Source: Cypionkella sp. | GTDB taxonomy: Bacteria > Pseudomonadota > Alphaproteobacteria > Rhodobacterales > Rhodobacteraceae | NCBI RefSeq assembly: GCF_034376685.1 | Contig: NZ_JAXMJJ010000012.1 | Span: 9,949-73,948, forward strand | Direction of reading: 5' to 3' | Length of the DNA: 64,000 nt | Part shown: in pieces, positions 3,209 through 61,908 of the stretch | Numbering within the stretch: the first letter of the stretch is position 1 | Layout of the letters: the number at the start of each line of letters is the position of its first letter | Notes under the pieces: model-generated | What the model was told of the DNA's origin: nothing | The model's input: the letters and a program-made list of their open reading frames with translations, nothing else | Databases searched by the model: none | Position numbers and translations under genes: made by a program

Positions 3209-3934
3209 CTAGCCGCGTTTATACCGACAGTCCTGCGTGCAGACCGGGCTTGCCGCGCGGATAGCTTCGGCGATCAGGGCGGGGATTTCGAGGCGCAAAC
3301 CGAGGGCGGCCAGCAGGGTGCCGCTGAACCCCGCGCTGGCCAAGGCTTCGGGGATGTCGGTGGTGACATGGCCGCCAGAGGCTGCGAAGAACGGCAGGCA
3401 GATGGCGTGATCCCCAATTGCGGGCAGGTCTTTCAGTTGCGGGGTTTGGTCGATGAAGGCGACATGAACCTCGCAGCCGAGTTCGGTGCGGATTTTGGCG
3501 GCGACATGGCCCGCGATGTCGGACGGGACCGACGATTTCGATGAGCCGTGGGCGGCGAGGATGATCGGGCCTGCGCGGGTTTGCAGAGCTTCGGCGGCGG
3601 TTTTGATGGTGAGGGCGTGCAGGCTGGCGAGGCAGCCCAGCGGCTCCAGCACCTGCCAGCCCTGCGCCCCTGCGGCGGTCAGGCGGGCGGGAAGGTGGGT
3701 GCGGGTGAACCAGCCTCCGGCCATGAACAGCGGAAACAGCAAGCCGCCCTGCCCCAGTTTGGCGATGGCTTTGGCAAGGGCATCGGGTTCAGCGAGGGTG
3801 GCAGAGGCGATGGTTTGGCTGGGCAGATGCGCCGCCACTTTTGCCGTCAGATTGGCCAGTTCTGCGGCGGCAGGTCCGGGGTCGGAGGGTTGGCCGTGCG
3901 CTACGATCAGGACAGGGGGCAGGACGGCGGGCAT
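3209..3934 (-). CDS. cbiX: CbiX/SirB family sirohydrochlorin chelatase-like protein
   Basis: Two repeated modules AHGQPS..PLFMAGGWF and AAHGSS..PFFAASGGHV. Confidence 0.8.
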   Translation of the reverse strand: MPAVLPPVLIVAHGQPSDPGPAAAELANLTAKVAAHLPSQTIASATLAEPDALAKAIAKLGQGGLLFPLFMAGGWFTRTHLPARLTAAGAQGWQVLEPLGCLASLHALTIKTAAEALQTRAGPIILAAHGSSKSSVPSDIAGHVAAKIRTELGCEVHVAFIDQTPQLKDLPAIGDHAICLPFFAASGGHVTTDIPEALASAGFSGTLLAALGLRLEIPALIAEAIRAASPVCTQDCRYKRG

Positions 3935-4007: not shown

Positions 4008-4090
4008 TGTCCGCGCGTGGACAGGCGGGCGGATTATATGATTTCAAGAGGTTATGCCGGGGTTCTTCATGCTCTGTTAAGGATTGCACC
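4008..4090 (-). repeat. Partial copy (tail module) of the composite intergenic element at 33248-33473
   Basis: Its reverse complement aligns ungapped to 33391-33473 at 57/83 by hand count, including identical TAACCTCTTGAAAT and CCTGTCCAC(A/G)CGCGGACA. Confidence 0.75.
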
Positions 4091-10871: not shown

Positions 10872-11008
10872 GGGGGACTCCTGTTTGTTGCAGACTATAT
10901 CGAATATCGACGCGGGTTTATCAAATAATCCCGAAAGGAGTTTTGCGGCTTGGCAGGGGCTACGCAGGCGGGCAAGCTGGGATAGACTGGCGTAAAATGG
11001 GGGCTGAT

Positions 11009-11362
11009 ATGGGCAAGTTGACCACGCATGTGCTGGATACCGCCAAGGGCAAACCTGCGCATGGGGTGAAGATCATGCTCTACCGGATCAGCGGGATGAG
11101 CCACAAAAAGATTGCGGAAACCGTGACCAATGCCGATGGCCGGACGGAGGCACCGATGCTGGAGGGCAAGGCGCTGAAGGCCGGGGTGTATGAGCTGGTG
11201 TTTTGCGCCGGGGAATATCTGATGGCCTCGGGGCAGGCCACGGGCGATGTGCTGTTCCTAGATGAAATCCCGATCCGGTTTGGCGTCGCGGATGCGACCG
11301 GGCATTACCATGTGCCGCTGTTGATCTCGCCCTTCGCCTATTCGACCTATCGCGGCAGTTAG
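11009..11362 (+). CDS. uraH: 5-hydroxyisourate hydrolase
   Basis: LTTHVLDTAKGKPA, HYHVPLLISPFAYSTYRGS signature. Confidence 0.95.
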   Translation: MGKLTTHVLDTAKGKPAHGVKIMLYRISGMSHKKIAETVTNADGRTEAPMLEGKALKAGVYELVFCAGEYLMASGQATGDVLFLDEIPIRFGVADATGHYHVPLLISPFAYSTYRGS

Positions 11363-11466
11363 GCGCAGCAGGCGGTCAAGGCTTGCAAATCTGCCGTCGC
11401 AGCGCATCTGTTACAGACGGAACCCGCTTGGGCTGACGTATAAAGTCCAAAGCGGCAGGGGATCAG

Positions 11467-12708
11467 ATGCAAAGCAGCGATGACATTGCCAGAATGCTGG
11501 CCGGGGCTGGGCGTAAACGGCGGCGTTGGCCTTGGGTTGTCTTGGTGCTGCTCATTCTGGCGGGCGTAGCCGGGTGGTATTATACCAGCAACAAGGCCGG
11601 GGCGGCGGCGGTGCGGTATACAACCGAGACCGTCGCCAAGGGCGATCTGGTGGTGGTGGTGACGGCGACGGGGACGGTGCAACCGACCACGGAAGTTGAG
11701 GTGTCGTCAGAGCTGTCGGGCACTTTGGCCAGCGTTTCGGTGGATTACAACGATGAGGTAAAGGTCGGCCAGATCCTGGCGCATCTGGATACCACCAAGC
11801 TGGTGGCGCAGGTCGATAATGCCCGCGCGCAACTGGCCGCAGCGAAGGCGCGGGTGACACAGGCCGAAGCGACCGCGCGGGAAGCGGCGGCGGTGCTGAA
11901 AACCCAGCAAGAACTGGCCGCGCGCGGGGTGGCGACGCGCAAGGATATGGTGGGGTTTGAGGCCAGCGATCAGCGCGCGCAGGCGGCGGTCGAGATTGCG
12001 CGGGCGGATCTGACGCTGGCGCAGGCCAATCTTGATCTGGTCAGCGCCGATCTGGGCAAGGCGGAAATTCGCAGCCCGATCAATGGCGTGGTGCTGGATC
12101 GCACCGCCGAGGCAGGCCAGATTGTGGCGGCGAACTTTGAGGCTCCGGTCTTGTTCAAGCTGGCGGAAGATCTGGAGCGGATGCAGTTGCTGGTCGATAT
12201 TGATGAGGCCGATATCGGCAAGGTCAATGTCGGAGATCCGGCGGATTTCACGGTTGAGGCTTATCCGGGCCGCAGCTTTCCGGCGGTGATCACCCAAGTG
12301 CGGTTTGCGCCGGAAACCACCAATGAGGTGGTGACCTATAAGGCGGTGCTGTCGGTCGCGAACCCGGATGGGCTGCTGCGCCCCGGCATGACGGCGACGG
12401 CGGTGATCACGGTGGATAAGGTCGCGGATGCGCTGTTGGTGCCGAATGCCGCGCTGCGCTATGCGCCGCCAGCGCAAGAAGTTGCGGGTGGGCCTTCTGG
12501 TGGTCTGGTCGGGCTGATCCTGCCAACACGGGGCGGTCGCGGCTCCGCTGGGCTTGGCAGCGGCAAGTCGGTCTGGCTTTTGCGGGCGGGCGCTCCTGTA
12601 GAGGTCGCGGTCAGCTTGGGGGCGACGGACGGGCGCGAGACGGTGGTGACGGGCGATTTGGCCGAGGGCGATGCGGTGATCACCGACCAAACCGCCGGGG
12701 CGCGCTGA
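11467..12708 (+). CDS. MacA-like periplasmic adaptor subunit
   Basis: N-terminal TM, VTATGTVQP, lipoyl-like SPINGVVL, LRPGMTA. Confidence 0.9.
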   Translation: MQSSDDIARMLAGAGRKRRRWPWVVLVLLILAGVAGWYYTSNKAGAAAVRYTTETVAKGDLVVVVTATGTVQPTTEVEVSSELSGTLASVSVDYNDEVKVGQILAHLDTTKLVAQVDNARAQLAAAKARVTQAEATAREAAAVLKTQQELAARGVATRKDMVGFEASDQRAQAAVEIARADLTLAQANLDLVSADLGKAEIRSPINGVVLDRTAEAGQIVAANFEAPVLFKLAEDLERMQLLVDIDEADIGKVNVGDPADFTVEAYPGRSFPAVITQVRFAPETTNEVVTYKAVLSVANPDGLLRPGMTATAVITVDKVADALLVPNAALRYAPPAQEVAGGPSGGLVGLILPTRGGRGSAGLGSGKSVWLLRAGAPVEVAVSLGATDGRETVVTGDLAEGDAVITDQTAGAR

Positions 12709-13415
12709 TGGCACCGCTGATCCAGCTGATCGGCGTGCATCGCAGTTATGGCACGGGCGAGGCCGAAGTGCGCGCGCTGGACGGGGTGGATCTGAGCATC
12801 CAGCGCGGCGAATTTGTCGCGATCATGGGGCCGTCAGGCTCGGGCAAATCTACCGCGATGAATATCATCGGCTGTCTGGATCGCCCCTCGGCGGGGAAAT
12901 ATCTGTTTCAAGGCGTCGAGGTGCAGGATCTCGACCAAGACCGCCGCGCGCTGTTGCGCAGGCATTGTCTGGGCTTTGTGTTTCAAGGCTTTAACCTTCT
13001 GGCCCGGCAGTCGGCGCTGGAAAACGTCGAATTGCCGTTGATCTATAAAGGTTTGCCGAAGGCCCAGCGGGTCGCGCGGGCGAAGCTAGCGTTGCAGAAG
13101 GTGGGGCTGGAGGGCCGCGAAGGCCATGACCCCTCGCAGCTTTCCGGTGGCCAACAGCAGCGGGTGGCGATTGCCCGCGCCTTGGCCAGCGATCCCATGG
13201 TGATCCTCGCCGATGAACCGACAGGCAATCTCGACAGCCAGCGCAGCCATGAGATCATGCAGTTGCTGCAAGCGCTGAACCGCGACGGCATCACCATTGT
13301 GATGGTGACGCATGAGGTGGATATTGCCGCCTATGCCCAGCGTCTTCTGGTGTTCACCGATGGCAAGCTGACCCGCGACGAGGCCACCCCCGCCCCCATC
13401 GCACGGAGCGCCTGA
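12708..13415 (+). CDS. MacB/LolD-type ABC ATP-binding protein
   Basis: [35 protein letters not shown]. Confidence 0.95.
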
Positions 13416-13417
13416 TC

Positions 13418-14626
13418 ATGCTGTGGGAAACCGTCAGCCTCGCCTTCACCACCATCATCCGCAACAAGCTGCGCACGTTTCTGACCGTGCTGGGCGTGGT
13501 GATCGGGGTTGCTGCGGTGATCGCGATGGTGACGATCGGCCAAGGATCATCAGCGCAAGTCAGCGCCAGCGTGGCGGCTTTGGGCACCAATGTGCTGACC
13601 GTGCGCCCCGGCACGCGTGGCTTTGGCCCACCGACCGGAGGCGCGCAAGCGCCGCGTTTTTCGCTGAAGGATGCCGAGGCTTTGTCCACCCTGCCCGTCG
13701 TGGGCTATGCCGCCCCGGTGGTCAGTTCCGGCCAAACTGTGGTGTTCGGTAATGCCAATGCCGCGACGCAGGTCTATGGTACCACGGGCGATTACATGCA
13801 GATACAGAACTGGCCGCTGCGCACAGGGCGCAGTTTTGAGCCGCATGAAGAAAGCGCGGGTGCTGCGGTCTGTGTGCTGGGCCAGACCGTGGCGACCACC
13901 TTGTTCGGCAATTCTGATCCGGTGGGCCAAAGCATAAGGGTGAAAAACGTCGCCTGTCAGGTGCTGGGCGTGCTGTCTGCGCGCGGCGCGGGCAGTTTCG
14001 GGCAGGATCAGGATGATCTGGTCTTGATGCCCGCGAAATCCGTGCAGCGGCGTCTGGAAGGCAACTCCAATGTGGATTCCATCGCGGTGGCTCTGCGCAA
14101 ATCGGTCAGCGCCGAGGATGGCATCGCCGCGGTGCAGTCGCTTTTGCGCGAGCGTCGGCGGATCGGCCTGACGCAGCCGGATAACTTCAGCGTCTCGGAC
14201 AGCAAAGAGCTGTCGAATATGCTGGGCGGGATCAATTCGGTGCTGACCGGGCTGCTCTCGTCGGTGGCGGCGGTCAGCCTGCTGGTCGGCGGCATTGGCA
14301 TCATGAATATCATGCTGGTCTCGGTCACCGAACGCACCCGTGAGATCGGCATCAGGCTGGCGGTGGGTGCCAGTTCGGGGCAGGTGCTGCTGCAGTTTCT
14401 GGTCGAAGCGGTGGTTTTGTCGCTGCTGGGTGGGGCAATTGGCATCGCCGTGGGGCTGGCGATTGCCTATGGCGGCTCGGTGTTCATGGCGATCCCGTTT
14501 GCGCCCTCGGGGGCGGTGGTGGCGCTCGCGTTCGGGTTTTCAGCGCTGGTCGGCGTGGTGTTTGGCTATTTCCCGGCACGGCGCGCGGCACGGCTGGACC
14601 CGATCGAGGCTTTGCGGCATCAGTAG
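13418..14626 (+). CDS. MacB-type ABC permease
   Basis: RNKLRTFLTVLGVVIG, GGIGIMNIMLVSVTERTREIGIRLAVGA, PARRAARLDPIEALR. Confidence 0.93.
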   Translation: MLWETVSLAFTTIIRNKLRTFLTVLGVVIGVAAVIAMVTIGQGSSAQVSASVAALGTNVLTVRPGTRGFGPPTGGAQAPRFSLKDAEALSTLPVVGYAAPVVSSGQTVVFGNANAATQVYGTTGDYMQIQNWPLRTGRSFEPHEESAGAAVCVLGQTVATTLFGNSDPVGQSIRVKNVACQVLGVLSARGAGSFGQDQDDLVLMPAKSVQRRLEGNSNVDSIAVALRKSVSAEDGIAAVQSLLRERRRIGLTQPDNFSVSDSKELSNMLGGINSVLTGLLSSVAAVSLLVGGIGIMNIMLVSVTERTREIGIRLAVGASSGQVLLQFLVEAVVLSLLGGAIGIAVGLAIAYGGSVFMAIPFAPSGAVVALAFGFSALVGVVFGYFPARRAARLDPIEALRHQ

Positions 14627-48559: not shown

Positions 48560-48602
48560 GCCACCAGCAAATTGAAACCTGATCTCTGGATTTGCTGGTG
48601 GC
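48560..48602. terminator. 13-bp inverted repeat that includes the tRNA 3' end (native downstream hairpin of tRNA-Met)
   Basis: GCCACCAGCAAAT (48560-48572) and ATTTGCTGGTGGC (48590-48602). Confidence 0.6.
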
Positions 48603-48618
48603 GAGAGAGAGACTCGAA
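48596..48618. repeat. att site: duplicated tRNA-Met 3' fragment
   Basis: TGGTGGCGAGAGAGAGACTCGAA versus TGGTGGCGAGAGAGAGACTTGAA at 61832-61854. Confidence 0.95.
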
Positions 48619-48710: not shown

Positions 48711-50072
48711 TTGGCACGAAAGACAGCAAAGGCGCTGCCCCGCCTGCTCAGATTGAAGGGGCAGACGTTCTGGTTTGCGCGGGATTTGCCCGCCGATTGC
48801 CGACCGATCTTTGGCAAGAAAACATGGCTGACGAATCTAGGGACTGCAGACATCAAGATCGCCGTTCAACGGCGCGATACGCTTGAAGCCGAAACCACGC
48901 AGGCCTTTGCAGCAATGCGCGCGGGGACTTGGAACCCCTCTGAGGCCCTCTCTCCTGCCGCCCGTGGCGAACTCTACCGCGAGACGCTCTTGGCCCTTTC
49001 GAGCGGCTCAGAGGCGGACCCAGATGCGTTGGAGTTGGCAGTGTATGCGGCTGAGTCTGAGCGCGATGCCTACCGTGGGCCGCAAAAGGGGGCCTTCGGG
49101 GATGCCTTGAAGGGCAGCGTGGAGGTGGATCGCCATATCGACGCCTACCTCATCACAATCGCCAAGCTGGCGCCTGCAACCATCCGGGGCATGAAAGGGC
49201 ATATTCTGCAGTTCGCGCGCTGGGCTTCTGAAAAGAAGTTGCGCCTTGATGCTGTGAGCAGACGAATAGCGGGTCAGTATGTCACGGCGGTTATCGACCC
49301 CATGCACCCAAAGACTGCCGCAGCACATCTTGGCTCATTACGGGCGTATTGGGGGTTCCTGCATAGAAGGGGCCACATCGTTGGTGCTGATGCGAAGGGC
49401 GGGCCGTGGGCGGACCAACAGATTGAGGTGAAGGGCAAAAGGGTCGAGCGCGGCGACAAAGATGAAGCACGCCCCTTCACCGTGGATGAGGTGCGAACAC
49501 TCCTCTATTCTCCTTTTCCCCCTCGCATGGCAGCGGAATTTGCGCCTCAACTCATTGACGCTCTGACAATCTCTCTTCTTTCAGGTATGCGCCAAGAAGA
49601 GATTGCAACGCTTTGGGTCGAGGAAGTCCGTGATGGGGTCTTTGACATTCAGCAGGGGAAGACTACCGCCGCCGCGCGCCCGGTTCCCATCCACCCTTCC
49701 CTTCTCGAAATAGTCAAACGCAGGACCGAGGGAAAGGGGCCAAAGGATTGGCTGTTCCACGAACTCACCGAAGAACGTGACGCGGGCGATATTCTAGGAA
49801 AGAGGTTCCGCCGCTACCGTGTCGCTCTGGGCGTTGATGATATGAGAGAAGGCAAGCGGCGGAGTCTTGTGACGTTCCATTCCGCCCGTCACTGGTTTGC
49901 ATATAATGCCAGCATTTCGGGACAGCATGAGAACACCATTGGCAGCGTGATCGGGCATCGTCCTGACAAAAAGAAGATCACATTTGGGGTTTACATCAAG
50001 GGTATCTCCGAGGAGCAAAGGCAGGCTTGTGTGGAGGTCGTTCAACTGCCCGCGCGCATCAATGCGGCTTAA
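48711..50072 (+). CDS. Tyrosine recombinase/integrase with DUF6538-like N-terminal arm-binding domain
   Basis: Catalytic R (SGMRQEEI), K (GKT), HxxR (FHSARH), H (IGH), Y (FGVY); N-terminal FWFARDLP..LGT.D; TTG start. Confidence 0.93.
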   Translation: MARKTAKALPRLLRLKGQTFWFARDLPADCRPIFGKKTWLTNLGTADIKIAVQRRDTLEAETTQAFAAMRAGTWNPSEALSPAARGELYRETLLALSSGSEADPDALELAVYAAESERDAYRGPQKGAFGDALKGSVEVDRHIDAYLITIAKLAPATIRGMKGHILQFARWASEKKLRLDAVSRRIAGQYVTAVIDPMHPKTAAAHLGSLRAYWGFLHRRGHIVGADAKGGPWADQQIEVKGKRVERGDKDEARPFTVDEVRTLLYSPFPPRMAAEFAPQLIDALTISLLSGMRQEEIATLWVEEVRDGVFDIQQGKTTAAARPVPIHPSLLEIVKRRTEGKGPKDWLFHELTEERDAGDILGKRFRRYRVALGVDDMREGKRRSLVTFHSARHWFAYNASISGQHENTIGSVIGHRPDKKKITFGVYIKGISEEQRQACVEVVQLPARINAA

Positions 50073-50086
50073 CTAGAAGAACGCTC

Positions 50087-50629
50087 TCAGTCGATGAACC
50101 TATTGGCCTGTGCCTTTTCAGCTTCGGCCTTCGCAAGTCTATCAACTTCCCCGTTCATGGTATCTCCGGCATGGCCTTTGACCCATTCCCATGTGATGCT
50201 GCGCCCTTCGGAAAGCCGGATAAGTTCTTCCCATAGTTCTCGGTTCTCGACGGGCTTGCCCTTGGCTTTCTTCCAGCCCTTCGCAATCCAGCCGGGAAGC
50301 CATTCCGTCATGCCCCGCACAATTATTAGGTTGTCGCTGCGGATTGTGATGGGCGCTGTTTCATCGCTTCGCAGGAAGCCCAGCGCCTTGATGATGGCCA
50401 TCATTTCCATCCGCATGTTAGTCGTGGCCTTGTCGCCCCCGCTGATACTGCGGTGCGCAGTCTGGCCCTCGCTGCTGTATCGCCGCAGAGTTGCAGCCCA
50501 GCCACCGGGGCCGGGGTTCCCTAGGCAAGAGCCATCGGCGTAAATCAGTATGCTGGTCTGGCCCTTGGGCTGGTCACTGCATTGGGTTGCGGCTGCGCTG
50601 GGCTTGGTCATGGTCGTTAAAGTCGTCAT
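50087..50629 (-). CDS. rnhA: Ribonuclease HI
   Basis: YADGSCLGNPGPGGW, TTNMRMEM, IRSD, ENRELW, WVKGHAG, EVDRLA: all four acidic catalytic positions and the basic protrusion (GWKKAKGKPV) are present. Confidence 0.92.
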   Translation of the reverse strand: MTTLTTMTKPSAAATQCSDQPKGQTSILIYADGSCLGNPGPGGWAATLRRYSSEGQTAHRSISGGDKATTNMRMEMMAIIKALGFLRSDETAPITIRSDNLIIVRGMTEWLPGWIAKGWKKAKGKPVENRELWEELIRLSEGRSITWEWVKGHAGDTMNGEVDRLAKAEAEKAQANRFID

Positions 50630-50798: not shown

Positions 50799-51641
50799 TC
50801 AAAAGTCCTCGTTGCCGCTCTCTTTCGGCTGCACCAGTGGGTGTTGTTCTGGGTTGTCGCTGAACTCATCTTCATCATAGAGGCAGCCGCCTGACATCGC
50901 AGCTTTGAACCGGGGTTGTCCAAGTCCTCCGCGCCACGATAAGCCAAACTCCTCCGGCGTGGGCCTTCGGTCGAACTCAGCTTTGAACGCCTTCTCCGTT
51001 TCCTTAAGCGACTTCAAAAGCCAAGCGATGCGCGCCTGTTTGGCCGCGTCACTGTCATCTTCGGGCTGGCCCTCCGGCTTGTTGCCGTTACGATCACGCC
51101 ACCAGTTGCCGCTGGGTGTTGTCCCTGCTTTGCTCAATTCAGCCCACCGCTTTCGCATTGCGCCGACCGTGCTTGTGCTGACAGTTGATGCCTGCACAAT
51201 CTGCCGTTTAGATGCCCCGGCTTCAATCACCAGACCCCAAGCATATTGGGTGCATTCGGCAGTGGTCCACGGAAAGGTTGTCTTAGCGTTGTCCTTCGCG
51301 GCCTCTAATCGGGCATCTTTACGCTCCCCCTGAAAGATGATCGCGGGAATGTCGAAAACCCGATTGAAGCGGTAAGCAGCAATGCGGTGGCGGCCATCAA
51401 GAATGATCAGCTTGCCCGTCCCCGGTTCGGCCCAGACTTTGATAGGGTCAAGATCACCGCAGTTGCGAAGCGCGCGGGCAAGGTCGTGAACATGGTTCTT
51501 GGCGGTTCCTGAGCGGGGCGTGAAGGCTGGGTCATATGTGAGGCTGTCCAGCGCAAGCCTAATCACGGCTGCTCTGGCAGGTAATAAGGGCGTCTCCGGC
51601 TGGTCGGTTGCCGGGGCGCTGGGCTTGACGGTATCATTCAT
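50799..51641 (-). CDS. ParB/Srx N-terminal domain protein with HTH
   Basis: LDPIKV, IILDGRHRIAA (GxxR motif), DN, HTH-like SKRQIVQASTVSTSTVGAMRK. Confidence 0.82.
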   Translation of the reverse strand: MNDTVKPSAPATDQPETPLLPARAAVIRLALDSLTYDPAFTPRSGTAKNHVHDLARALRNCGDLDPIKVWAEPGTGKLIILDGRHRIAAYRFNRVFDIPAIIFQGERKDARLEAAKDNAKTTFPWTTAECTQYAWGLVIEAGASKRQIVQASTVSTSTVGAMRKRWAELSKAGTTPSGNWWRDRNGNKPEGQPEDDSDAAKQARIAWLLKSLKETEKAFKAEFDRRPTPEEFGLSWRGGLGQPRFKAAMSGGCLYDEDEFSDNPEQHPLVQPKESGNEDF

Positions 51642-51691: not shown

Positions 51692-51824
51692 GTGGGATGG
51701 GGGCAAGCAGGATTTGTTATGGCTGGGGTGGGGGTGAATTGAATTGTGGCGCGACCCTGCCGTTTGCCCCAAGTTCGTGAGTGCGCTTGGTTGCGGCGCG
51801 CGACGTGCAGTCCTCTCGCCGTGA

Positions 51825-51919
51825 AGCGTTGAGCGTTGAGCGTTGAGCGTTGAGCGTTGAGCGTTGAGCGTTGAGCGTTGAGCGTTGAGCGTTGAGCGTT
51901 GAGCGTTGAGCGTTGAGCG
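51825..51919. repeat. Perfect heptamer tandem repeat (AGCGTTG) x13 plus partial
   Basis: 13 exact units at 51825-51915 plus AGCG, counted by hand. Confidence 0.97.
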
Positions 51920-52146
51920 GGTTTATCTGGGCTAGGGTGTGGGTGAAACGAAATTGCGGTGGGCGCAGCGCAGCATGTTAAAGCTAGGAGGTTTCCTAGG
52001 CCTCCATACTGCGACCTTCGCGGGCACGAGAGGCAAGATTTCGTTAATGCCGAAGGTATGTCGACCGGGACAGTCCCGCCCTATTACAGGCTTCTCTCGT
52101 TGGGTTTCTTTGTTTACGGTAGTCGGAACTACTGAAGGAGTGAGTT

Positions 52147-54111
52147 GTGGCGGAAACAGGCTGGCTATCAGACCCAATCGGCAGGATTAGTAATCTGTCC
52201 CTCGCTCCCTCTCCAAAGAATACGCTTCAGCCGATGTTTGAAGCGCTTATGAACTCCATACACGCCATTGAAGAAAGATTTGGAAGAGATCACCTTGCGT
52301 CAGGTATCATCGACATCGAGATAACCCAAAATGAAGCCGGGGGCTACACGGGTTTCATCGTCAGCGACAATGGGGCGGGTCTCAACACCGAAAATATGAC
52401 TTCGTTTAGGAAGTCCGATTCGATGAAAAAGGTAAAGTTCGGTGGTAAGGGTGTTGGCAGGCTGCTCTGGCTAAAGGTAGCGGACAGGATAGAGATCACC
52501 AGTACGTTTGGACATGTCGATGGCCTACAATCTATCAGTTTCGACTTCATAGCGGACGCGACAACACCCATTGCCAATTTGGTAGAAGCCACAGCTTCGG
52601 GTGATGTTGGCACCGTAGTTCGGCTCACTCCGTTAAAAACGGCTTATTCCAACCATATCCCCGTGAAGCTGGAAACAATAGCGGTGAGAACCGTCGCTCA
52701 CTTCATTAATTACTTTGTAAACATCGATTGCCCTAAAATTACTTTGTTCGATAACCAAAAGCGCATCGTGCTGTTCGACAAATTCGCTGAAGACGTCATT
52801 CGAGATGAAAAGTATCCGGTATTGACTATGGTAGACGGCGAGACGAGAGACCTATCGTTGAATTGTTTTTTGGTGCCAAGGAACTACTCTGATGATGAGA
52901 AGGGCACCAACGGTCTATTCTTCGGTGCCCACGGGCGCGCAGTCACGCGATATGATATGGATGGAGTCATTGGGCTTAAGGCTATTGAAGAAAAGTATGC
53001 CTTCTTTGGTTACTTGGAAGGACAGATACTCAATGACGCCGTGAACGATACTCGCACTGAGTTTTCCCTAAGTGAGGATACGATTGATGAACTTAAAAGG
53101 GAATGTATTAGCAAGATTCACGTTTTTCTAAAGGATGAGATTGCACGCGTCCGCGAACGTCAGCTTGAGACGATTATCGTCGTGCGAAACGAACACCTGA
53201 GATTCTACAATATTGCGAAGAACCCAGAGGAGATAGCCGAAAAACTTTCTCTCGGCACCCAAAAGGAAGAAGATATATTCGTTGAGATGTCACGACACTC
53301 TCTGAGGCAGTATAAGAAAGCACGTAGGGAGTTCAGCGAGGCCAAGAAAAAGGGACTTCCCGATATCGAGCAAAGGGCCAAGGAATATGTGGCGGAGCTT
53401 CAAGATGAATCCCTGTCGTCGTTGGCCGAATACGTCTACAAGAGGAAATTACTTCTAGATATATTTGAGGAGAAGATTGGTTTCGCCGATATCGAAACTG
53501 AGAAGGCTCACTACGAACGGGTAGTCCACGATTTAATATGTCCTCTGGGGTCCACCAAAAGCGATCTGAACTACGAAGACCACAATCTTTGGGTCATTGA
53601 TGATCGATTGGCTTTCTATTCATACTTTAACTCCGACAAGCAATTAAAGGCACAGTCTCCTAGTACGGATATTCGTCGTCCAGACGTGACATTGTTTGAT
53701 CTTGGCATGGGTTTTGACAAGGGCTCCTCGCAGGAACCAATAACAATTATTGAATTCAAGCGCCCGAAACGTAACGACTACACTATGGCGGACAACCCAT
53801 TTACGCAGGTCCAAGATTATGTGAAAGAACTTCGCAAGGCAGGTGAGGCGTGTCGTTTCGATGGAAAAACTATACGTGTAATCGATTCTGATGCACCGTT
53901 TATGTGTCAGATCATCGCGGATGATACTCCCAGTCTTCGTGATGTTATGGACAGGCTCAATGGTTTCTATAAAAAGGCAGGATCAAAATCCTACTATCGC
54001 TGGGATAGTCACTTCAAAATATTTATGGAAGTGACATCATATTCCGACCTCATTTCGGGTGCCAAAGCTCGCCATGCGGCTTTCTTTGAAAAGCTGGGAA
54101 TACAGTCTTAG
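52147..54111 (+). CDS. GHKL (MORC/MutL-like) ATPase fused to a C-terminal PD-(D/E)xK nuclease-like domain
   Basis: N-box EALMN, G1 DNGAG, G2 GGKGVG, G3 GTVV; helical middle region; then YERVVHDLI...RRPD...IIEFKRP...QVQDY. AT-richer than the host genes. Confidence 0.8.
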   Translation: MAETGWLSDPIGRISNLSLAPSPKNTLQPMFEALMNSIHAIEERFGRDHLASGIIDIEITQNEAGGYTGFIVSDNGAGLNTENMTSFRKSDSMKKVKFGGKGVGRLLWLKVADRIEITSTFGHVDGLQSISFDFIADATTPIANLVEATASGDVGTVVRLTPLKTAYSNHIPVKLETIAVRTVAHFINYFVNIDCPKITLFDNQKRIVLFDKFAEDVIRDEKYPVLTMVDGETRDLSLNCFLVPRNYSDDEKGTNGLFFGAHGRAVTRYDMDGVIGLKAIEEKYAFFGYLEGQILNDAVNDTRTEFSLSEDTIDELKRECISKIHVFLKDEIARVRERQLETIIVVRNEHLRFYNIAKNPEEIAEKLSLGTQKEEDIFVEMSRHSLRQYKKARREFSEAKKKGLPDIEQRAKEYVAELQDESLSSLAEYVYKRKLLLDIFEEKIGFADIETEKAHYERVVHDLICPLGSTKSDLNYEDHNLWVIDDRLAFYSYFNSDKQLKAQSPSTDIRRPDVTLFDLGMGFDKGSSQEPITIIEFKRPKRNDYTMADNPFTQVQDYVKELRKAGEACRFDGKTIRVIDSDAPFMCQIIADDTPSLRDVMDRLNGFYKKAGSKSYYRWDSHFKIFMEVTSYSDLISGAKARHAAFFEKLGIQS

Positions 54112-54170: not shown

Positions 54171-54821
54171 TCACGCCTTGGAATTTTCCGTCCACTTCAC
54201 CAGTACGGCCTCCGCCCCCGGCAGATCATCCCGAAGCCGCTGCACGGTGGGCCGCGTCAAGCCTGTTGCCTTGGCGATAGCGGAAGCCCCGACACCCTGA
54301 GAAAGCATGTCTCGCATCATGTCGAGCTGTTCCCGTGAGTAGCTGGGCTTCCTGCCACGATACTTGCTGGGGTCTGCGGCTTTGTGATGGGCAATACCTG
54401 CCTTCTGTGCCTCTTTGGTGGCCTCAGCCTGAGCCTGTGCCGTTGCCGCCATGAAGCCTATCAGCGCGTCCCTCACTGCCATCTGCATTACGTCTTTCGT
54501 GGCCCCGTCAAAGGTTTGGTTGTTGATCACTGTTCGGATGATAACGCCGCGCTTCATAAGGGCCTTGATGGTATCGGTCACATCTTCATAGTTGCGGCCA
54601 AGGCGATCAACCCAACGCACGACAAGCGTGTCCCCGGCTCTGAGTAGATCAAACAACCGCTTGCCCTCGGTTCTCTCAGCAAGCCGGGTAGAAACCCCAG
54701 ATACGCCATGATCGGTGACAACTAGGTCAATCTTGAACCCCGCCGCCTCTGCCTGCGTCTTCTGGTGATCACTGCTATGTTATAACGAGCTAACGCGGGC
54801 ATAAAGGATGGTTTGGGACAT
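54171..54821 (-). pseudogene. Serine recombinase (resolvase/invertase) with in-frame nonsense codon
   Basis: ATG 54821 reads MSQTILYARVSSL, then TAA (54782-54780), then continues in frame HSSDHQ...DHGVSG...RPEG-like RTEG..LFDLLRAGDTLVVRWVDRLGR; C-terminal HTH. Confidence 0.88.
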
Positions 54822-55165: not shown

Positions 55166-57508
55166 CTACTCAGCGTAGAGACCCGCCTGAATCAAATTGT
55201 AGGCGTCCCTAATCGTCTGCAATTCTCCAAGCTTGGCCCTGCCCTCGCTAACGCTGCCATATCTGGCTGTGAGAAATTGCCCTAGCTTCTTTCCGGCAAG
55301 TTCTGCCTCGCCTGCCGTCTCGTAGGCCTTAAGGATGCCCAGAAGGAGTTCCCTCATTTCCCCCACGAAATTACCCATGCCATCCTGCCTGACTGTCTCG
55401 GCGCGGTCGTGCCGGGTCTTGGGCGGGTTAGCGAAGAGAATGTAGTTTAGAACGTCGTAAAGGTCGCTCTTGGGGGCATCCACAAGCCTACGTATGTCGT
55501 CCAGCCTGTCGGGGTCGTAGCCATTATCGTCGAGCTGGGTGAGGAAGTGTTCGCGGTTGTCGGGGTTGCTCCAGATGGTGCGCAACTGGTCTTCGTCTGC
55601 GACCATGCCTGAAAGGTCACCGAACAGGCGCTGCAGGAAATCTGCGGCGGATATTGGTTTGCCGTCCGGTCCCCAATAGGTGGTCGTAGCGATGTACTGG
55701 ATGGAACGAGCTTTACCGTCAGCCAGCTTGATCATGATCTTGGTCGAGGGTTCGTCTTCGCCGCCCTCACCGTCTTCACCACCGGGCAGCGGTGGTTCTG
55801 GTTCTGGACCGGGCTTGGGTGGCTCACCTGTTGGCGGGCGGGGCCTTGGTGGTGTCACCTCTTCGGGCGGGCCGTCCCATTCGGGGTCGTTGAAGTTCTC
55901 ATGCGCCTTCACGAAATCCCATATGGTAAAGAAATCCTTGCCGTCATAGGTTCGGGTCCCCCGCCCGATGATCTGCTTGAACTCGATCATCGACCGCACG
56001 GGGCGCATCAGAACGATGTGACGCACGTTGCGGGCATCGACCCCGGTGGACAGCTTTTGCGATGTGGTCAGGATAGTCGGAACGGTCTTGTCGTTGTCCT
56101 GAAAGTCCCTCAGGTGTTGGTCTCCGATGGCCCCATCATTCGCCGTCACCCGATGGCAGTAGTTCGGGTCGGTGCTGACCTTGATCTGATTGATAATGTC
56201 GCGCACGCGTGCGGCGTGGTCTTGGGTGGCGCAGAAGATGATTGCTTTCTGCCGTTGGTCCACCTCTTCCATGAACTCCTGCACACGACTGCGTTCGCGT
56301 TCTTCGATGATCAGGCGAGTGTTAAAGTCAGACTCGGTGTATTTGCGATCTTCTTCAATCTCTCCGGCCAGAACAGTGTCGGTCGGGTCATAGACATATT
56401 CATCAATCGTGCTGGCCATCTGGCGCACCTTGAAAGGGGTCAGGAAGCCATCTTCGATCCCCTCTTTCAGAGCATAGGTGTACACCGGGTCGCCGAAATA
56501 GGCATAGGTGTCGGCGTTCACCGCGCGCTTGGGCGTAGCGGTCAGACCAAGTTGAACGGCAGGGGCGAACCAATTCAGCAATTCGCGCCATTGGCTTTCG
56601 TCATTCGCCCCGCCCCGGTGGCATTCGTCGATGATTATGAAATCGAAGAAGTCCGAGGGATAGGATTTGTAGATCGGCTCACCTTCCCCCGTCATGAAGG
56701 TCTGAAAGATCGTGAAAAACAGGCTGGCATTCTTCGGCACGCCGCCCTTCTTGCGCAACTCGCTAGGGTCGATGCGCGTGATGGCGTCCGAGGGGAAGGC
56801 GGAGAAAGCGTTGTAGGCTTGGTCAGCAAGAATATTGCGGTCAGCGAGGAACAGGATGCGGGGGCGACGGGTGGGTGTGCGGGTCAGGTTCCACTTCGCC
56901 TGAAACAACTTCCACGCGATCTGAAACGCAATAGAGGTTTTGCCCGTCCCGGTGGCCAACGTCAGCAGGATGCGGCTGCGTTCCATCGCCACGGCCTCCA
57001 GCGCCGCCGTGATGGCGTTGTGCTGGTAGTAGCGCAACTCCCACTTGCCGCCATCAGTTTCGAAGGGCACAACGCCGAACCGCAAGCGCCATTCATTGGG
57101 CAGCCCGAAGGTGCGCTGCCAAAGGTCTTCGGGGGTTGGGAAGGGAAGCGTGAACTGGCCCTCGGCCCCGGTGGCCATGTCGATCTGATACCAGCCAAGA
57201 CCGTTGGAGGCATAGGCGAACCGTGCCCCCAGACGGGCCGCATAGTCCTTGGCTTGGCCCACCCCTTCCGCGTGAGAAATCCCCGCCCGCTTCGCCTCTA
57301 GCACGGCAAGTTTATGGCCGCGAAACTCCAGCACGATGTCGCAGGACAGACCCTTGCCGCGCCTGCCGCCTGACTGGATGCGACCGGGGCAGATTTGTTC
57401 GCGCTTGATCGCGGCCCCACCCGTGCCCCAGCCAGCCGCCATCAGCACCGGATCGATGCGGTTGGCGCGGGTGTCGGCTTCGGTTTCGGTTTCGGAGTTA
57501 CTCACCAT
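55166..57508 (-). CDS. hsdR: Type I restriction enzyme R subunit (EcoAI/EcoEI-like)
   Basis: CDIVL..LEAKR nuclease, LATGTGKT, IIIDECHRG, LSTGVDA, QIIGRGTR. Confidence 0.95.
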   Translation of the reverse strand: MVSNSETETEADTRANRIDPVLMAAGWGTGGAAIKREQICPGRIQSGGRRGKGLSCDIVLEFRGHKLAVLEAKRAGISHAEGVGQAKDYAARLGARFAYASNGLGWYQIDMATGAEGQFTLPFPTPEDLWQRTFGLPNEWRLRFGVVPFETDGGKWELRYYQHNAITAALEAVAMERSRILLTLATGTGKTSIAFQIAWKLFQAKWNLTRTPTRRPRILFLADRNILADQAYNAFSAFPSDAITRIDPSELRKKGGVPKNASLFFTIFQTFMTGEGEPIYKSYPSDFFDFIIIDECHRGGANDESQWRELLNWFAPAVQLGLTATPKRAVNADTYAYFGDPVYTYALKEGIEDGFLTPFKVRQMASTIDEYVYDPTDTVLAGEIEEDRKYTESDFNTRLIIEERERSRVQEFMEEVDQRQKAIIFCATQDHAARVRDIINQIKVSTDPNYCHRVTANDGAIGDQHLRDFQDNDKTVPTILTTSQKLSTGVDARNVRHIVLMRPVRSMIEFKQIIGRGTRTYDGKDFFTIWDFVKAHENFNDPEWDGPPEEVTPPRPRPPTGEPPKPGPEPEPPLPGGEDGEGGEDEPSTKIMIKLADGKARSIQYIATTTYWGPDGKPISAADFLQRLFGDLSGMVADEDQLRTIWSNPDNREHFLTQLDDNGYDPDRLDDIRRLVDAPKSDLYDVLNYILFANPPKTRHDRAETVRQDGMGNFVGEMRELLLGILKAYETAGEAELAGKKLGQFLTARYGSVSEGRAKLGELQTIRDAYNLIQAGLYAE

Positions 57509-57528: not shown

Positions 57529-58233
57529 TCACTTGTCCGAATAGCCCGCAGTGGTCCAGAACTCTCTGGCTTGGCTTACCTCTGGGCCATTCTTCCAACC
57601 GCTTCGCAGAAACTCCAGCGAATACCATTTACGGTCACACTCTTCATAAAACACCTGATTGAAGATGCTGCCTGTATGTGCGGCACGTTGGATTTCGTAC
57701 ACCTCGGAAAGAAGGGTCAGGAGGTGATTTAAGCTGAAAGGAACCTCAGCCAAAACGCCTTCGGGCAGCACGAATGGGCCTGTGGTGATCTTCACCTTGC
57801 GGCTGCTGTCTTCCGCGACGCTCAATCCACCTTCACTGTCCTTATGGCGTTTCTTGGGCTTAGGAGGAGGGGGGTCCGCAAGGGTGACCTCAAAGAATTG
57901 ACTGTCAATCCGCGTCCGCGAGGTCAAATCCCAAACGACCTTGCCGCGCATTTCAGGGGATGGAACAAGGTGCCCCGAAAGTTTCTCCGTGAGGTCGTCC
58001 GGTGCGCTGATACTTAGGGCAATGCGAAGGCGCGCCCCCACGGGCAGGAACTGTGCGTTAACGGGTACTGGCCGGGGTTTTCCCCATCCTAGTGTTTTGT
58101 GGCCACTCTGCGAGATTTCGAAGGTTGCCATCGTGCCGGGTTTTACGGTCAATGGCGTGCCGTCATCCGTCACCCAACGGCCATCATGGAACCACGCTGG
58201 AATTCGGGCGAACAGGTCAACTTCTTCAGCCAT
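57529..58233 (-). CDS. Hypothetical protein inside the type I RM locus
   Basis: ~234 aa co-oriented ORF filling the gap between the HEPN gene and hsdR; C-terminal SLNHLLTLLSEVYE.QRAAHTGSIF..VFY..WYSLEFLR block. No family recognised. Confidence 0.65.
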   Translation of the reverse strand: MAEEVDLFARIPAWFHDGRWVTDDGTPLTVKPGTMATFEISQSGHKTLGWGKPRPVPVNAQFLPVGARLRIALSISAPDDLTEKLSGHLVPSPEMRGKVVWDLTSRTRIDSQFFEVTLADPPPPKPKKRHKDSEGGLSVAEDSSRKVKITTGPFVLPEGVLAEVPFSLNHLLTLLSEVYEIQRAAHTGSIFNQVFYEECDRKWYSLEFLRSGWKNGPEVSQAREFWTTAGYSDK

Positions 58234-58304
58234 GGGTATACTCCACCGGGTTGATACGGTTGGCGCGGGGGTCCACTTCGGTTTCATCTTTACGAATCAA
58301 GGAT

Positions 58305-58952
58305 TTAATCCAATGCCTGATTGGGGAAATTCAACTTACGCCCCGCCTCAAGATTGCGAACCATGTTATCCACACCGATCTCGATAAATTCAGCCAAGTG
58401 GAATGAAAATCTTCCTCCTGAGAGCCCTCGTTCATGTGCTCCAACTATAGAAATCAGTGTATTTGTCACTCTTTCTACATCCTGCGCGGATAGAGGATAA
58501 TCTGAGTAAATTTGGTCCCCGTTATCAAGGTATCGTTTGTCTCTGTGAGCGAAGAACTTGTCGCGACGCCCCCTAATTGCCTTAATCACATGCTCGTGTT
58601 CAACCAGCGCGTCGGCCTGTTTCCGAAGTACGCTTTCATCTAGCGGCTTGCCCTCCGCCCAACTGATTTGCCGCCGGTTGGTAAGACAAAAGCGGATGAA
58701 CTTTCCAATACTGTAGCCGTCCTCTTCGAAGAATTTCGCCAAAGTTAAGTGCAAATCTTGTTCAAGTGACTTGATGAGAAGAATGAGCAGCGGCTCAATC
58801 TTCCAAAGCCTATCGCCTAGTTCGCTGTGCTTCCCTAAGAAACTTTGATACATTTGCAGCTTGCAAACCAAACCATCCTGATCGGTTCCGTGGAGAAGCT
58901 GCGCATATTTCGAAAGTCTGCGTTCGTAATTCTCTTGTGTGGTTTCATTCAT
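58305..58952 (-). CDS. HEPN (AbiU2-like) domain protein
   Basis: All-helical 215 aa with RRDKFFAHRD (Rx4-6H) in the C-terminal third; start overlaps the hsdS stop (ATGA/TGA); AT-richer. Confidence 0.7.
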   Translation of the reverse strand: MNETTQENYERRLSKYAQLLHGTDQDGLVCKLQMYQSFLGKHSELGDRLWKIEPLLILLIKSLEQDLHLTLAKFFEEDGYSIGKFIRFCLTNRRQISWAEGKPLDESVLRKQADALVEHEHVIKAIRGRRDKFFAHRDKRYLDNGDQIYSDYPLSAQDVERVTNTLISIVGAHERGLSGGRFSFHLAEFIEIGVDNMVRNLEAGRKLNFPNQALD

Positions 58953-60064
58953 GTCAGTTCCCCCGCGAAAGCTTTTTCGAGGAAGGATTGGCGGAGGGCG
59001 TCGATTTTTTCAAGCTTAGCTCTCGCCAACTTCTCAAGGTCCGCAGTCGCTAACTGGGCGGCATCAATTCGCGATGCACTTTCCTGCTGCGCCGCCATCG
59101 GTGGAAGCGCAAAGGCATACCTAAACATGTGGTCGCGATTTACCTTCGGCATCCCCGCACGGTCCGACCCGCTGATTGCGTACTCAGTAAAGTCATGCCC
59201 GAGCAACAAGTGAAAAAGATAGTCCCGGTCGAGACGACCTGCCTTGGGTGTCAGTGGATACACGTCCGCGCTGCATAAGCCACTGAAGTCTGGGCGGGCA
59301 GCTTTCCTCAGATAGGGACGAATCTTGCTGTATAGGACGGTGTTTTCGTCAAAGGTGTATTTGCCAGAGATAAGTTTTTCCTCTCGCGCAGTCTTGACGT
59401 CCACGAGTAAATCGGACCCCGTCACCATATTGCCAGCCCCAAGGTGCAACATGTCGGCGAAGGTTTCTTCTCTCGGATCAACCAAACTCGAAGCAATCAC
59501 CGTAACGTCGTCAAGGGTTACAGTGGCGCTGTCGCCCCCATCATAGCGCAGGGCGTCCGCTTTGATGCTCTCAAACAACTCCCGAGTATTGCGGAGGTTG
59601 GATTGGGCGTGGGCGCGGGCACGGGCCAGACCCTCAAAGGCCTCGTCCAGAACCGCAACGATCAGTTGTTGTTCTTCGAGGGGTGGGAGGGGGATTGTCA
59701 GCCCGTAAACGTCATTTCTGTTAATGCCCGGCTTAACACCTCTCGCCATGCTGGGAAGGTTTAAGGTCCTCATGGCATAGTGAAGGAAGTCGAAGTCAAG
59801 TTTCGTCTGATCATGTGTCGTGAAGTAGGTCACGTCGGAGGGCCAAAATGGGCCGTCCACGCGCGTAATCTCACCAGCAGAACCTTTTCGCCCAACGACC
59901 AGCGAAGGTCCAGTCGTCAAATGCCGATCTGACCAGTCCATGACGCCGTTCGCGCCGTACACAGGCACTGCTCCATCAGCGTTTCGCTCATTTTGCGCCA
60001 ATGACTTGCCGTAGTTCAATGTCACTACTTCACTGACACCAACCTCTTTCCACCCCGCCTTCAC
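58949..60064 (-). CDS. hsdS: Type I RM specificity subunit
   Basis: Two TRDs separated by IPLPPLEEQQLIVAVLD; second FALPPMAAQQ; C-terminal SFLEKAFAGEL. Confidence 0.95.
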   Translation of the reverse strand: MKAGWKEVGVSEVVTLNYGKSLAQNERNADGAVPVYGANGVMDWSDRHLTTGPSLVVGRKGSAGEITRVDGPFWPSDVTYFTTHDQTKLDFDFLHYAMRTLNLPSMARGVKPGINRNDVYGLTIPLPPLEEQQLIVAVLDEAFEGLARARAHAQSNLRNTRELFESIKADALRYDGGDSATVTLDDVTVIASSLVDPREETFADMLHLGAGNMVTGSDLLVDVKTAREEKLISGKYTFDENTVLYSKIRPYLRKAARPDFSGLCSADVYPLTPKAGRLDRDYLFHLLLGHDFTEYAISGSDRAGMPKVNRDHMFRYAFALPPMAAQQESASRIDAAQLATADLEKLARAKLEKIDALRQSFLEKAFAGELT

Positions 60065-61509
60065 AGCATTCCCCTGATGCTTTCCAGAATCTCCGCCGTC
60101 TCGGCATCGCGGGCCAGCATGTCGGCGATGATCACCTCGGGTGACCGCAAGGCAGCCGCTTCGGGGGCGTTCGGGTTCTTAACCGACAAATCCAAGGTGT
60201 CCGCGTCAAGGCTTCCCCTCGCGATGCGCCAGCTTTTCGGTCCCTCGGTAAAGCCCTTCTGCAGAGTCACGAACTCGGCCAGATCATCGTCGTTCAGCGG
60301 GTTGGTCTTGCCCATGTTGCGACCGGGGTCGAGTTGGTAAAACCAGATGTCCCGCGTCGGTGCGCCCTTTTCAAAGAACAGCACTACGGTTTTCACTCCG
60401 GCCCCCTGAAAGGTGCCCTGAGGGCAATCGAGGATGGTGTGCAGGGTGCAGGCCGTCAGCAACTCGCGCCGCAGCGCCACGCTGGCGTTGTCGGTGTTGG
60501 ATAGGAAGGTGTTCTTGATCACCACCGCCGCGCGGCCTCCCGCCCGCAGCTTGCGGATGAAGTGCTGCAGGAAGAGGTAAGCCGTCTCTCCGGTACGGAT
60601 GGGGAAGTTCTGCTGCACCTCGCGCCGTTCGCCGCCACCGAAGGGCGGGTTGGCGAGGATGATGTCGTGACGGTCTTTCTCCTGAATATCCATCACGTTT
60701 TCATTCAGTGAGTTGGTGTGCAGAATGTTTGGGGCCTCAATGCCGTGCAGCACCATGTTCATGATGCCGATGATGTAGGCGAGGGATTTCTTTTCCTGCC
60801 CGAAGAAGGTCTTGGTCTGCAGGGTTTGGAATTCCGAGGCGGTCAGATCATCGCGGCGCATGTAGTCGTAAGCCTCGCACAGGAAGCCTGCGGAGCCTAC
60901 CGCGCCGTCATAGATGGTTTCGCCAATCTTGGGGGCGGTAACTTTGATCATGGCGCGGATAAGCGGGCGTGGGGTGTAGTATTCGCCACCGTTGCGGCCT
61001 GCGTTGCCCATGCGGCGGATGCGGGTTTCGTAAAGCTGCGAAAGTTCGTGGCGCTCGGCTTGCGTGTTGAAGGACAGGCTGTCCACCACCTCCAGCACGT
61101 CGCGGAGAATGTAGCCGGAACGGAACTTGTTGCGCAGTTCGGTGAAAATCTCGCCGATCTTGTAGTGGATGGTCTTGGCGCTTGTAGCTGACTGACGGAA
61201 GGTGGCGAGGTAGGGGAACAGCTTCTGGTCCACGAACGTTATCAGGTCTTCGCCGATCATCGCCGCATTATGGTCAAACGCGCCGTTGACCTTAGGGGCA
61301 GCCCAACGGTCCCAGCGAAAGGGCCCGTCGATGATGGGCGTATAAGTTTCGCCATCCAGTTCTGCCCGGTCGCGGCGTTCCGTCTCTAGGTCATGCAGGT
61401 ACTTGAGGAACTGAACCCACGAAATCTGTTCGACGTAATCCAGTTCGTTCGCGATGCCGTCTTCGTTGCGGAGTTCGCGTTCGATGCTGTTGAAGGCGTT
61501 TTCGTACAT
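60061..61509 (-). CDS. hsdM: Type I RM m6A methyltransferase
   Basis: GEYYTPR, YDGAVGSAGFL, ILANPPF. Start MYENAF at 61509. Confidence 0.96.
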   Translation of the reverse strand: MYENAFNSIERELRNEDGIANELDYVEQISWVQFLKYLHDLETERRDRAELDGETYTPIIDGPFRWDRWAAPKVNGAFDHNAAMIGEDLITFVDQKLFPYLATFRQSATSAKTIHYKIGEIFTELRNKFRSGYILRDVLEVVDSLSFNTQAERHELSQLYETRIRRMGNAGRNGGEYYTPRPLIRAMIKVTAPKIGETIYDGAVGSAGFLCEAYDYMRRDDLTASEFQTLQTKTFFGQEKKSLAYIIGIMNMVLHGIEAPNILHTNSLNENVMDIQEKDRHDIILANPPFGGGERREVQQNFPIRTGETAYLFLQHFIRKLRAGGRAAVVIKNTFLSNTDNASVALRRELLTACTLHTILDCPQGTFQGAGVKTVVLFFEKGAPTRDIWFYQLDPGRNMGKTNPLNDDDLAEFVTLQKGFTEGPKSWRIARGSLDADTLDLSVKNPNAPEAAALRSPEVIIADMLARDAETAEILESIRGML

Positions 61510-61734
61510 AAAATCCAACCTGTTGCTCGGCTTGCAGTTATCCACCTTGTGCCCAGCAGAGCAAGCAGGATGGTGCGGCTGAAAGGGATTGCACTGTCAG
61601 AAATCAACAGCCTGAGGCATGGCTAAGAGGGCAATGAAGTCACGCTATCGTTCTGCCAGCTTGGGATAGGAGTAAGTGCGGCGCTATTGGGCGGGGACGC
61701 GCGGGCCTCGAACTTCCGTAGAGAGGCTGGGGGG

Positions 61735-61831: not shown

Positions 61832-61908
61832 TGGTGGCGAGAGAGAGACTTGAACTCTCGACCCCACGATTATGAGTCGTGTGCTCTAACCAACTGAGCT
61901 ACCTCGCC
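61832..61908 (-). tRNA. tRNA-Met (CAT), elongator type
   Basis: GGCGAGGTAGCTCAGTTGGTTAGAGCACACGACT-CAT-AATCGTGGGGTCGAGAGTTCAAGTCTCTCTCTCGCCACCA: paired G1-C72, 77 nt, encoded CCA, layout like the E. coli elongator tRNA-Met. Confidence 0.95.

Follow-up and report, generated by a model that had tools for sequence, protein, structure and literature searches.

Analysis of the window, which is the whole stretch of 64,000 nt from Cypionkella sp., showed that an integrative island of 13.2 kb lies on a tRNA-Met gene at the window's end. The tRNA-Met (CAT), the integration site of the island, was located by ARAGORN at 61832..61908 on the minus strand. The 3' 23 nt of this gene (61832-61854) recur as a direct repeat at 48596-48618, with 96% identity and a spacing of 13,236 nt. 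Domain matches identified a tyrosine integrase (DUF6538 and Phage_integrase) at 48711-50072. The GC content of the island was 55%, compared with 63-66% in the flanks. Beside the integrase, the island carries an RNase H gene (50087-50629, minus strand; Pfam, 4e-35) and a weak ParB_N-like gene (50799-51641, minus strand).

The right half of the island is formed by a string of five minus-strand genes, namely hsdM, hsdS, a HEPN gene, a gene encoding a 234-aa protein, and hsdR. The minus-strand ORFs and the Pfam assignments confirmed this order, which the preliminary description of the locus had given as hsdM-hsdS-HEPN-unknown-hsdR. The hsdM gene (60061..61545, minus strand) encodes a type I N6-adenine methyltransferase of 494 aa (Pfam N6_Mtase, 6.7e-56, and HsdM_N; PADLOC MTase_I, 2.7e-151), and the NPPF motif is readable in its translation. 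Its stop overlaps the start of hsdS by 4 nt. The hsdS gene (58949..60064, minus strand) encodes a specificity subunit of 371 aa with two target-recognition halves (two stretches of Methylase_S in Pfam; PADLOC Specificity_I, 3.1e-94). The hsdR gene (55166..57508, minus strand) encodes a restriction subunit of 780 aa that was assigned to the EcoAI/EcoEI family (type IB) by NCBIfam and by the Pfam domains ResIII, Helicase_C and EcoEI_R_C (9.9e-20). Against the NCBIfam model restrict_EcoAI (EcoAI/FtnUII equivalog), HsdR scored 776.8 bits (cut-off 550; 2.5e-233), covering profile positions 2-767 of 768. Because the equivalog score of HsdR is full-length, the EcoEI_R_C domain is present, and HsdM and HsdS look complete, the host operon is apparently an intact type IB (EcoAI-family) restriction-modification (RM) system and not a type IC system. 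A promoter and terminator scan across the operon gave matches at chance level only and is uninformative on internal signals.

The HEPN gene (58305..58952, minus strand) encodes a protein of 215 aa. Pfam assigned it to the HEPN_AbiU2 family (PF18734, E=6.4e-19) with a score of 68.6 bits (cut-off 26.8), and residues 56-186 aligned to profile positions 41-181 of 193; no second Pfam family was found on the protein. The AbiU2-like identity had been proposed earlier and was borne out by this match. The sequence ACATGAATG is common to the hsdS stop and the HEPN start, and the two genes share a 4-nt ATGA overlap (HEPN ATG, hsdS TGA), as had also been described. The motif RDKFFAHRD, likewise noted before, occupies residues 130-138 (R130-D-K-F-F-A-H136-R-D138). 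Residues R129, R130, H136 and D138, together with the upstream E53 and E64, were kept in at least 95% of 71 aligned homologues belonging to both of the clades described below. The catalytic signature of HEPN proteins is Rx4-6H with a polar residue (N, D or H) right after the arginine (PMC3710099). In the family, the motif reads Rx5H and residue 131, next to R130, is D or N (R130-[D/N]131), and the protein thus carries the motif of the HEPN superfamily.

No Walker A motif (GxxxxGK[ST]) was found in the 215-aa protein, and no ATPase family was matched in Pfam or NCBIfam, in agreement with the earlier statement that an ATPase domain is lacking. Pfam revealed no nucleotidyltransferase (MNT-type antitoxin) in either neighbour of the HEPN gene. 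Searches of PADLOC (PADLOC-DB v2, including the PDC and HEC candidates), NCBIfam and PHROGs returned nothing for the HEPN protein. The AF2 model built from the family alignment was all-alpha and confident, with a pLDDT of 82.8. In the model, the motif lies at the end of helix 120-137, and a loop follows; the HEPN motif is described as having the same location, where a helix gives way to a loop (PMC3710099). E53 and E64 lie within or just before model helix 54-75, and E64 is followed by H68, giving Ex3H and not Ex3[KR]. Foldseek comparison of the model with the PDB and BFVD gave nothing at E<0.001, and the best HEPN structure in the list was 3jrt (rank 27, E=2.5). A profile search of PDB sequences with the HEPN family gave chance-level matches only. 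The hhalign comparison of the family profile with P0080 and with the NTase_sub_bind protein of locus L084, which were single sequences set against a low-diversity profile, gave no signal. Since Foldseek gave no significant match, the predicted HEPN fold rests on sequence-profile evidence and motif anatomy and not on a structural match.

The homologue set comprised 77 proteins, all with PF18734, of which the 71 mentioned above entered the conservation alignment. Wherever a source name was present, the homologues were alphaproteobacterial. The maximum-likelihood tree separated clade A (21 members), to which the window's protein belongs, from clade B (52 members) with a support of 99/97. Clade B is a sister clade of about 50% identity, and its members are stand-alone genes on other mobile elements. 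The genomic context could be read for six of the 21 members of clade A, and all six lie in the arrangement hsdM-hsdS-HEPN-hsdR of the EcoAI-type RM family. Besides the window, these are locus L001 from a Paracoccaceae MAG, L002 from a Hyphomicrobiales MAG, L025 from Vannielia litorea, and the loci L032 and L087. Because the arrangement recurs in five other loci, the hsdS-HEPN-hsdR order of the window is not a chance juxtaposition. An overlap of the HEPN start with the hsdS stop is seen in five of these loci, and in the five loci other than the window hsdR starts 3-7 nt past the HEPN stop. The PrrC-like position between hsdS and hsdR and the translational coupling to hsdS, both proposed in the preliminary description, were thus supported. 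In the Vannielia litorea locus, the HEPN-bearing RM operon is followed by genes with the domains CTD6, MC2 and AAA_23, which are domains of ABC-3C-type conflict systems, and by an ArdC-like gene (11176-14611); the element is apparently conjugative and has a TraG-type coupling protein.

Comparison of nucleotide substitutions showed that the HEPN gene is under strong purifying selection. Across all pairs, pN was 0.08-0.32 against a pS of 0.64-0.94, and dN/dS was about 0.06 in the single unsaturated pair. With purifying selection this strong, the possibility that the gene is a decayed relic was rejected. The GC content of the HEPN gene was 46.6% in the window, compared with 59% in hsdM and hsdR, and in every locus it was 8-19 GC points lower than that of the flanking hsdM and hsdR.

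The members of clade B were found in different surroundings: in an ICE-like region with SSB, DUF736 and PIN/MazE genes, beside a PLD-type gene, beside integrases, and near AbiE and patatin genes. No RM gene was found near the clade B members in these four mobile or defence-type contexts, and no EcoAI-type RM system was found within 10 kb of any of 22 clade B genome loci (0/22). The two clades differ at six distinguishing positions, which are mild and mostly hydrophobic; a search for clade-specific surface residues that could mark an RM-docking interface returned these six mild substitutions only. The link between the HEPN gene and RM has two sides. The solo relatives in clade B, a near-identical RM operon without the gene and an integron cassette outside any RM context (both described below) argue against a link that is obligatory. 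A real link is favoured by the monophyletic clade A, which has kept one slot of a single RM family in all six known contexts.

An EcoAI-family HsdR was found in 19 of the 401 genomes sampled from the class. Among eight operons with the window's M-S-R order, three carried passengers (the window, L083 and L084), four carried none, and one had a non-coding insert. A near-identical operon was found on the metagenome contig L036, which has the same tRNA-proximal flank as the window and a DNA identity to the window of 91.5% in hsdM and 87% in hsdR. The HEPN gene is absent from L036, where the counterparts between hsdM and hsdR were limited to short conserved segments of hsdS and the start of the second passenger, the 234-aa gene. 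Because solo relatives exist and the near-identical L036 operon lacks the gene, the HEPN gene is a modular passenger and its embedding is an add-on.

Other operons carried other genes in related positions. In L084, an EcoAI-type operon (10357-12947) has an NTase_sub_bind gene, of the HEPN superfamily, and a gene for a 122-aa protein between hsdM and a half-size hsdS, and a gene for a 334-aa protein without a known family lies between hsdS and hsdR. In L033, a 277-aa protein occupies the HEPN slot (725-1558); its gene overlaps the hsdS stop by 4 nt and is followed by a homologue of the second passenger. This protein has a weak CBS match and a C-terminal RDHIAH (Rx4H), and judged by this motif it may be a different HEPN-like effector.

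The second passenger (57529..58233, minus strand) encodes a protein of 234 aa from an unannotated family and was characterised by alignment, clusters and genomic contexts. Its start was placed at 58233 (MAEEV..., as in all homologues) and not at 58287, the start of the ORF 57529-58287; the additional 5' codons of that ORF arise where a duplicated hsdR 5' end is read out of frame. The family comprised 138 clusters (50% identity) at E<1e-3 and has an invariant C-terminal SLNHxxTxLSExxExxRxSHTG. Its AF2 model had a pLDDT of 86.4. Searches of Pfam, NCBIfam, PADLOC, PHROGs and PDB sequences returned nothing for it, there was no Foldseek match, and a scan of viral contigs found no member. Among 401 genomes sampled from the phylum, it was present in the window's own genome only.

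The second passenger is independent of the HEPN gene and is not its partner. It is absent from the five other HEPN loci, and it occurs without an AbiU2 gene in L035, L036, L039 and dozens of metagenome loci (L089-L159). Five of six early contexts had pointed to a family specific to type IB RM; this was overturned by an unbiased metagenome sample, in which 4 of 26 informative loci lay beside type IB genes. The second passenger adjoins the type IB hsdR in both gene orders. In many of the remaining informative loci, another restriction-type gene stands immediately upstream of it. Some of these genes encode type IIG fused enzymes, and the second passenger is then followed by the PADLOC candidate helicase PDC-S68. 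Others encode a type III Res subunit, a different type I HsdR, GmrSD, BrxL, DUF499, NERD, UvrD-type and AAA_13 proteins. The family is a promiscuous companion of restriction-type systems. Being unannotated, with a confident model without a fold match and with many restriction-type neighbours, it is possibly the more rewarding target of the two passengers.

The junction between the two passengers retains a remnant of the hsdR 5' end (58226..58300, minus strand), which reads ...DETEVDPRANRINPV... and was recognised by six-frame reading against the true hsdR start and against L025, L002 and L036. The remnant comes directly after the HEPN stop and forms a mini-ORF of 24 codons, which begins with TTG and ends with a TGA that overlaps the start of the second passenger (ATGGCTGA). 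A 42-nt direct repeat (58244-58285 and 57446-57487, 86% identity) brackets the second passenger, the copy at 58244-58285 lying in the remnant and that at 57446-57487 inside hsdR. L036 shows an equivalent scar (3258-3296 and 4045-4083, 95% identity), and in both the window and L036 the stop of the remnant mini-ORF (23-24 codons) overlaps the passenger ATG. The duplicated hsdR 5' end looks like a recombination scar that preserves translational coupling. From the decayed copy of the hsdR 5' end and the bracketing repeat, the second passenger appears to have been inserted at the first hsdR codons, so that the window operon looks like an hsdS-HEPN-hsdR operon into which the second passenger was recombined at this point. 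The 3' ends of hsdS are duplicated around other passengers of the slot, in L033 (725-1558 and about 1590-1615, KAFAGELT) and in L083 (7312-8004, ASKQIENYRALKSA...SEA). As read from these sequences, the duplicated hsdS 3' ends suggest an exchange of cassettes by recombination at conserved hsd gene ends. Such insertion scars show how these operons get rebuilt.

In architecture, the locus is like that of PrrC in EcoprrI (E. coli prr, type IC, hsdM-hsdS-prrC-hsdR), which, like the window, has a co-oriented, co-expressed HEPN-superfamily gene in the hsdS-hsdR slot. PrrC and the HEPN protein of the window have both been proposed to target RNA as a second line of defence (PMC3710099). In PrrC, an ABC-ATPase regulatory domain occupies the N-terminus and the HEPN family is another one, whereas the window's protein has 215 aa, no ATPase and an AbiU2 domain. 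Because the ABC-ATPase domain is missing and the HEPN family differs, the window's protein is not a member of the PrrC family. Experiments have shown that EcoprrI keeps PrrC latent and that T4 Stp activates it, whereas the window's gene is known from its sequence and has a type IB host. The name-giver of PF18734, AbiU2/AbiUii of Lactococcus lactis, shares the Pfam family and the Rx4-6H motif with the window's protein; unlike it, AbiUii is longer and is partnered with the nuclease-like AbiUi and not with RM. AbiUii showed no toxicity in E. coli (PMC3985639), and when added to AbiUi it lowered phage resistance (PMC13064643). No published RNase activity for any AbiU2-family member was found in the literature searched.

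The association of AbiU2 HEPN genes with RM is itself already known. 'R-M operons' are given as a setting of AbiU2 HEPN genes in Table 1 of Anantharaman et al. 2013 (PMC3710099), so that the claim of novelty made for the locus in the preliminary description was overstated. Makarova et al. proposed immunity-suicide coupling for such loci, and a coupling of HEPN and RM was put forward in both PMC3710099 and PMC3632139. The association and the logic in Anantharaman 2013 and Makarova 2012/2013 are the same as in the window, and no specific locus was analysed there. Embedded defence genes were surveyed in 2024, when the preprint of Payne et al. ('guilt-by-embedding') catalogued embedded genes by the thousands in type I RM, BREX and DISARM; defence genes embedded in Hma systems are also among its subjects. 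One of these, the embedded HEPN protein HEC-08, defends alone and requires its motif histidine (Payne et al. 2024 preprint). The window's HEPN gene resembles such embedded passengers in being co-oriented and nested between system genes and in having homologues that are also non-embedded. HEC-08 is a DUF3644-HEPN protein with zinc ribbons, whereas the window's passengers match no PDC or HEC model of PADLOC-DB v2. The integron cassette HNPBCG_15845 (HEPN AbiU2) of V. mimicus MB461 was associated with T4/T7 resistance and has no RM context (10.64898/2026.03.17.712381). It could not be cloned alone (10.64898/2026.03.17.712381), and for this reason its autonomy is not clean. HNPBCG_15845 and the window's protein share the AbiU2 domain, are small, and are encoded by mobile promoterless cassettes; the context is an integron in the one case and RM in the other.

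For more than 10 years, it has been predicted that RM-nested HEPN genes couple the restriction of DNA to suicide or dormancy at the RNA level. To our knowledge, almost no such gene outside PrrC has been tested. New in the present analysis are the type IB host family, the sister clades of embedded and solo genes, the near-isogenic operon without the HEPN gene, and the recombination scars with the anatomy of their junctions.

The reading that we favour, which we consider somewhat probable, is that the HEPN gene encodes a latent endoribonuclease that is co-translated with HsdS, cuts RNA on phage infection and arrests translation, acting as an abortive layer behind restriction. To the observed family, motif, coupling anatomy, slot conservation, selection and modularity, this reading adds an RNase activity, latency, a trigger and a defence phenotype, which we infer. 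The AbiU2-family HEPN protein is a predicted metal-independent endoribonuclease, and its gene is probably best described as a promoterless passenger cassette in the hsdS-hsdR junction of a type IB operon on a tRNA-Met island. Translation of the protein from the operon mRNA would keep pace with that of HsdS, and the protein would stay latent as long as the cell is healthy. When a phage infects, it would cut tRNA, rRNA or mRNA, and translation would halt; an abortive-infection or dormancy layer would thereby be added behind DNA restriction. We think it more likely that the trigger is sensed by the HEPN protein itself than that it is relayed from the RM complex; if so, the nesting would serve co-expression and co-transfer and not an obligate physical partnership. 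The latent-RNase reading is favoured by the PF18734 match, the R/H motif, the slot, the selection, the solo clade B, the L036 operon, the T4/T7 cassette, HEC-08 and the published proposals of HEPN-RM coupling. Against it stand the negative literature search for RNase activity in the AbiU2 family, the lack of toxicity of AbiUii in E. coli and the lowered AbiUi resistance, the missing Foldseek match, the failure to clone the V. mimicus cassette alone and the missing PADLOC model.

In the preliminary description, the protein was taken for a guard of the RM complex that fires when RM is inhibited. On this account it would be an ATPase-less analogue of PrrC, held inactive by HsdM2S or HsdR and released when an Ocr/ArdA/Stp-type protein disables the type IB enzyme. 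The slot between hsdS and hsdR is indeed that of prrC, translational coupling to hsdS is found in five of six loci, clade A is monophyletic (99/97) and is found in one slot of a single RM family in all six known contexts, and the association is old enough for synonymous sites to be saturated. However, inheritance as a block on mobile islands would account for the clade pattern just as well. Relatives of about 50% identity in clade B are working, or are at least kept under selection, without RM nearby; the integron cassette was reportedly associated with phage defence outside any RM context; the near-identical operon of L036 does without the gene; the six mild positions that distinguish the clades form no clade-specific patch hinting at a docking interface; and the protein has no nucleotide-sensing ATPase domain such as that of PrrC. 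The guard proposal was thus not supported, and we regard it as unlikely. A broader version of the same idea, in which clade A is an ATPase-less PrrC analogue that reads the state of the type IB enzyme through contact with HsdS or HsdM and fires once phage anti-restriction proteins block that enzyme, and the 234-aa family, as a neighbour of motor or nuclease genes in type I, type IIG, type III, GmrSD and BREX systems, is a general 'restriction-status' sensor or adaptor, the two forming a two-component guard layer, would be more doubtful still.

The protein might also be a regulator. By binding or trimming RNA it would adjust the RM operon itself, for instance by holding back or restricting HsdR synthesis once the operon has entered a new host, or it would dampen a partner as AbiUii does AbiUi. 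The position of the gene, with the modification genes on one side and hsdR on the other within a single mRNA, would suit this role, and so would the lowered resistance with AbiUi and the lack of toxicity in E. coli. Yet the R...H motif of catalytic type does not vary in either clade, even among solo members with no RM to regulate, and related RM operons function without the gene (L036, and four of the eight sampled M-S-R operons), which makes a regulator improbable. A toxin-antitoxin or addiction pair, with a HEPN toxin and the 234-aa protein as the antitoxin that together stabilise the island, could be read from the adjacency and common orientation of the two genes and from the remnant mini-ORF that links their translation. 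The distributions of the two genes are independent: the second gene is missing from five HEPN loci and occurs without the HEPN gene in L035, L036, L039 and dozens of metagenome loci. For this reason the pair was largely refuted and was rejected; the second gene is moreover bracketed by its own insertion scar, and no MNT-type antitoxin is present. We give it hardly any credence. Since clade A keeps to one slot of one RM family, clade B stands alone and a near-identical operon lacks the gene, a natural comparison is at hand, by which 'guard of the RM' and 'autonomous hitch-hiker' can be tested directly against each other.

The island contains further genes. A 654-aa protein (52147-54111, plus strand) has a weak GHKL ATPase N-terminus and a weak HSDR_N-like nuclease C-terminus. 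It matched phrog_6203 (3e-10) and no PADLOC model, and its gene has the lowest GC content of the island (45%); it is a candidate single-gene defence protein. Between the ParB-like and GHKL genes lies a tandem heptamer, AGCGTTG, of about 13 units (51806-51938). A resolvase gene (54171-54656, minus strand) is N-terminally truncated, its Pfam match beginning at profile position 56 of 145, and lacks the catalytic serine region; its homologue in L036 is full-length, with 212 aa and 68% identity.
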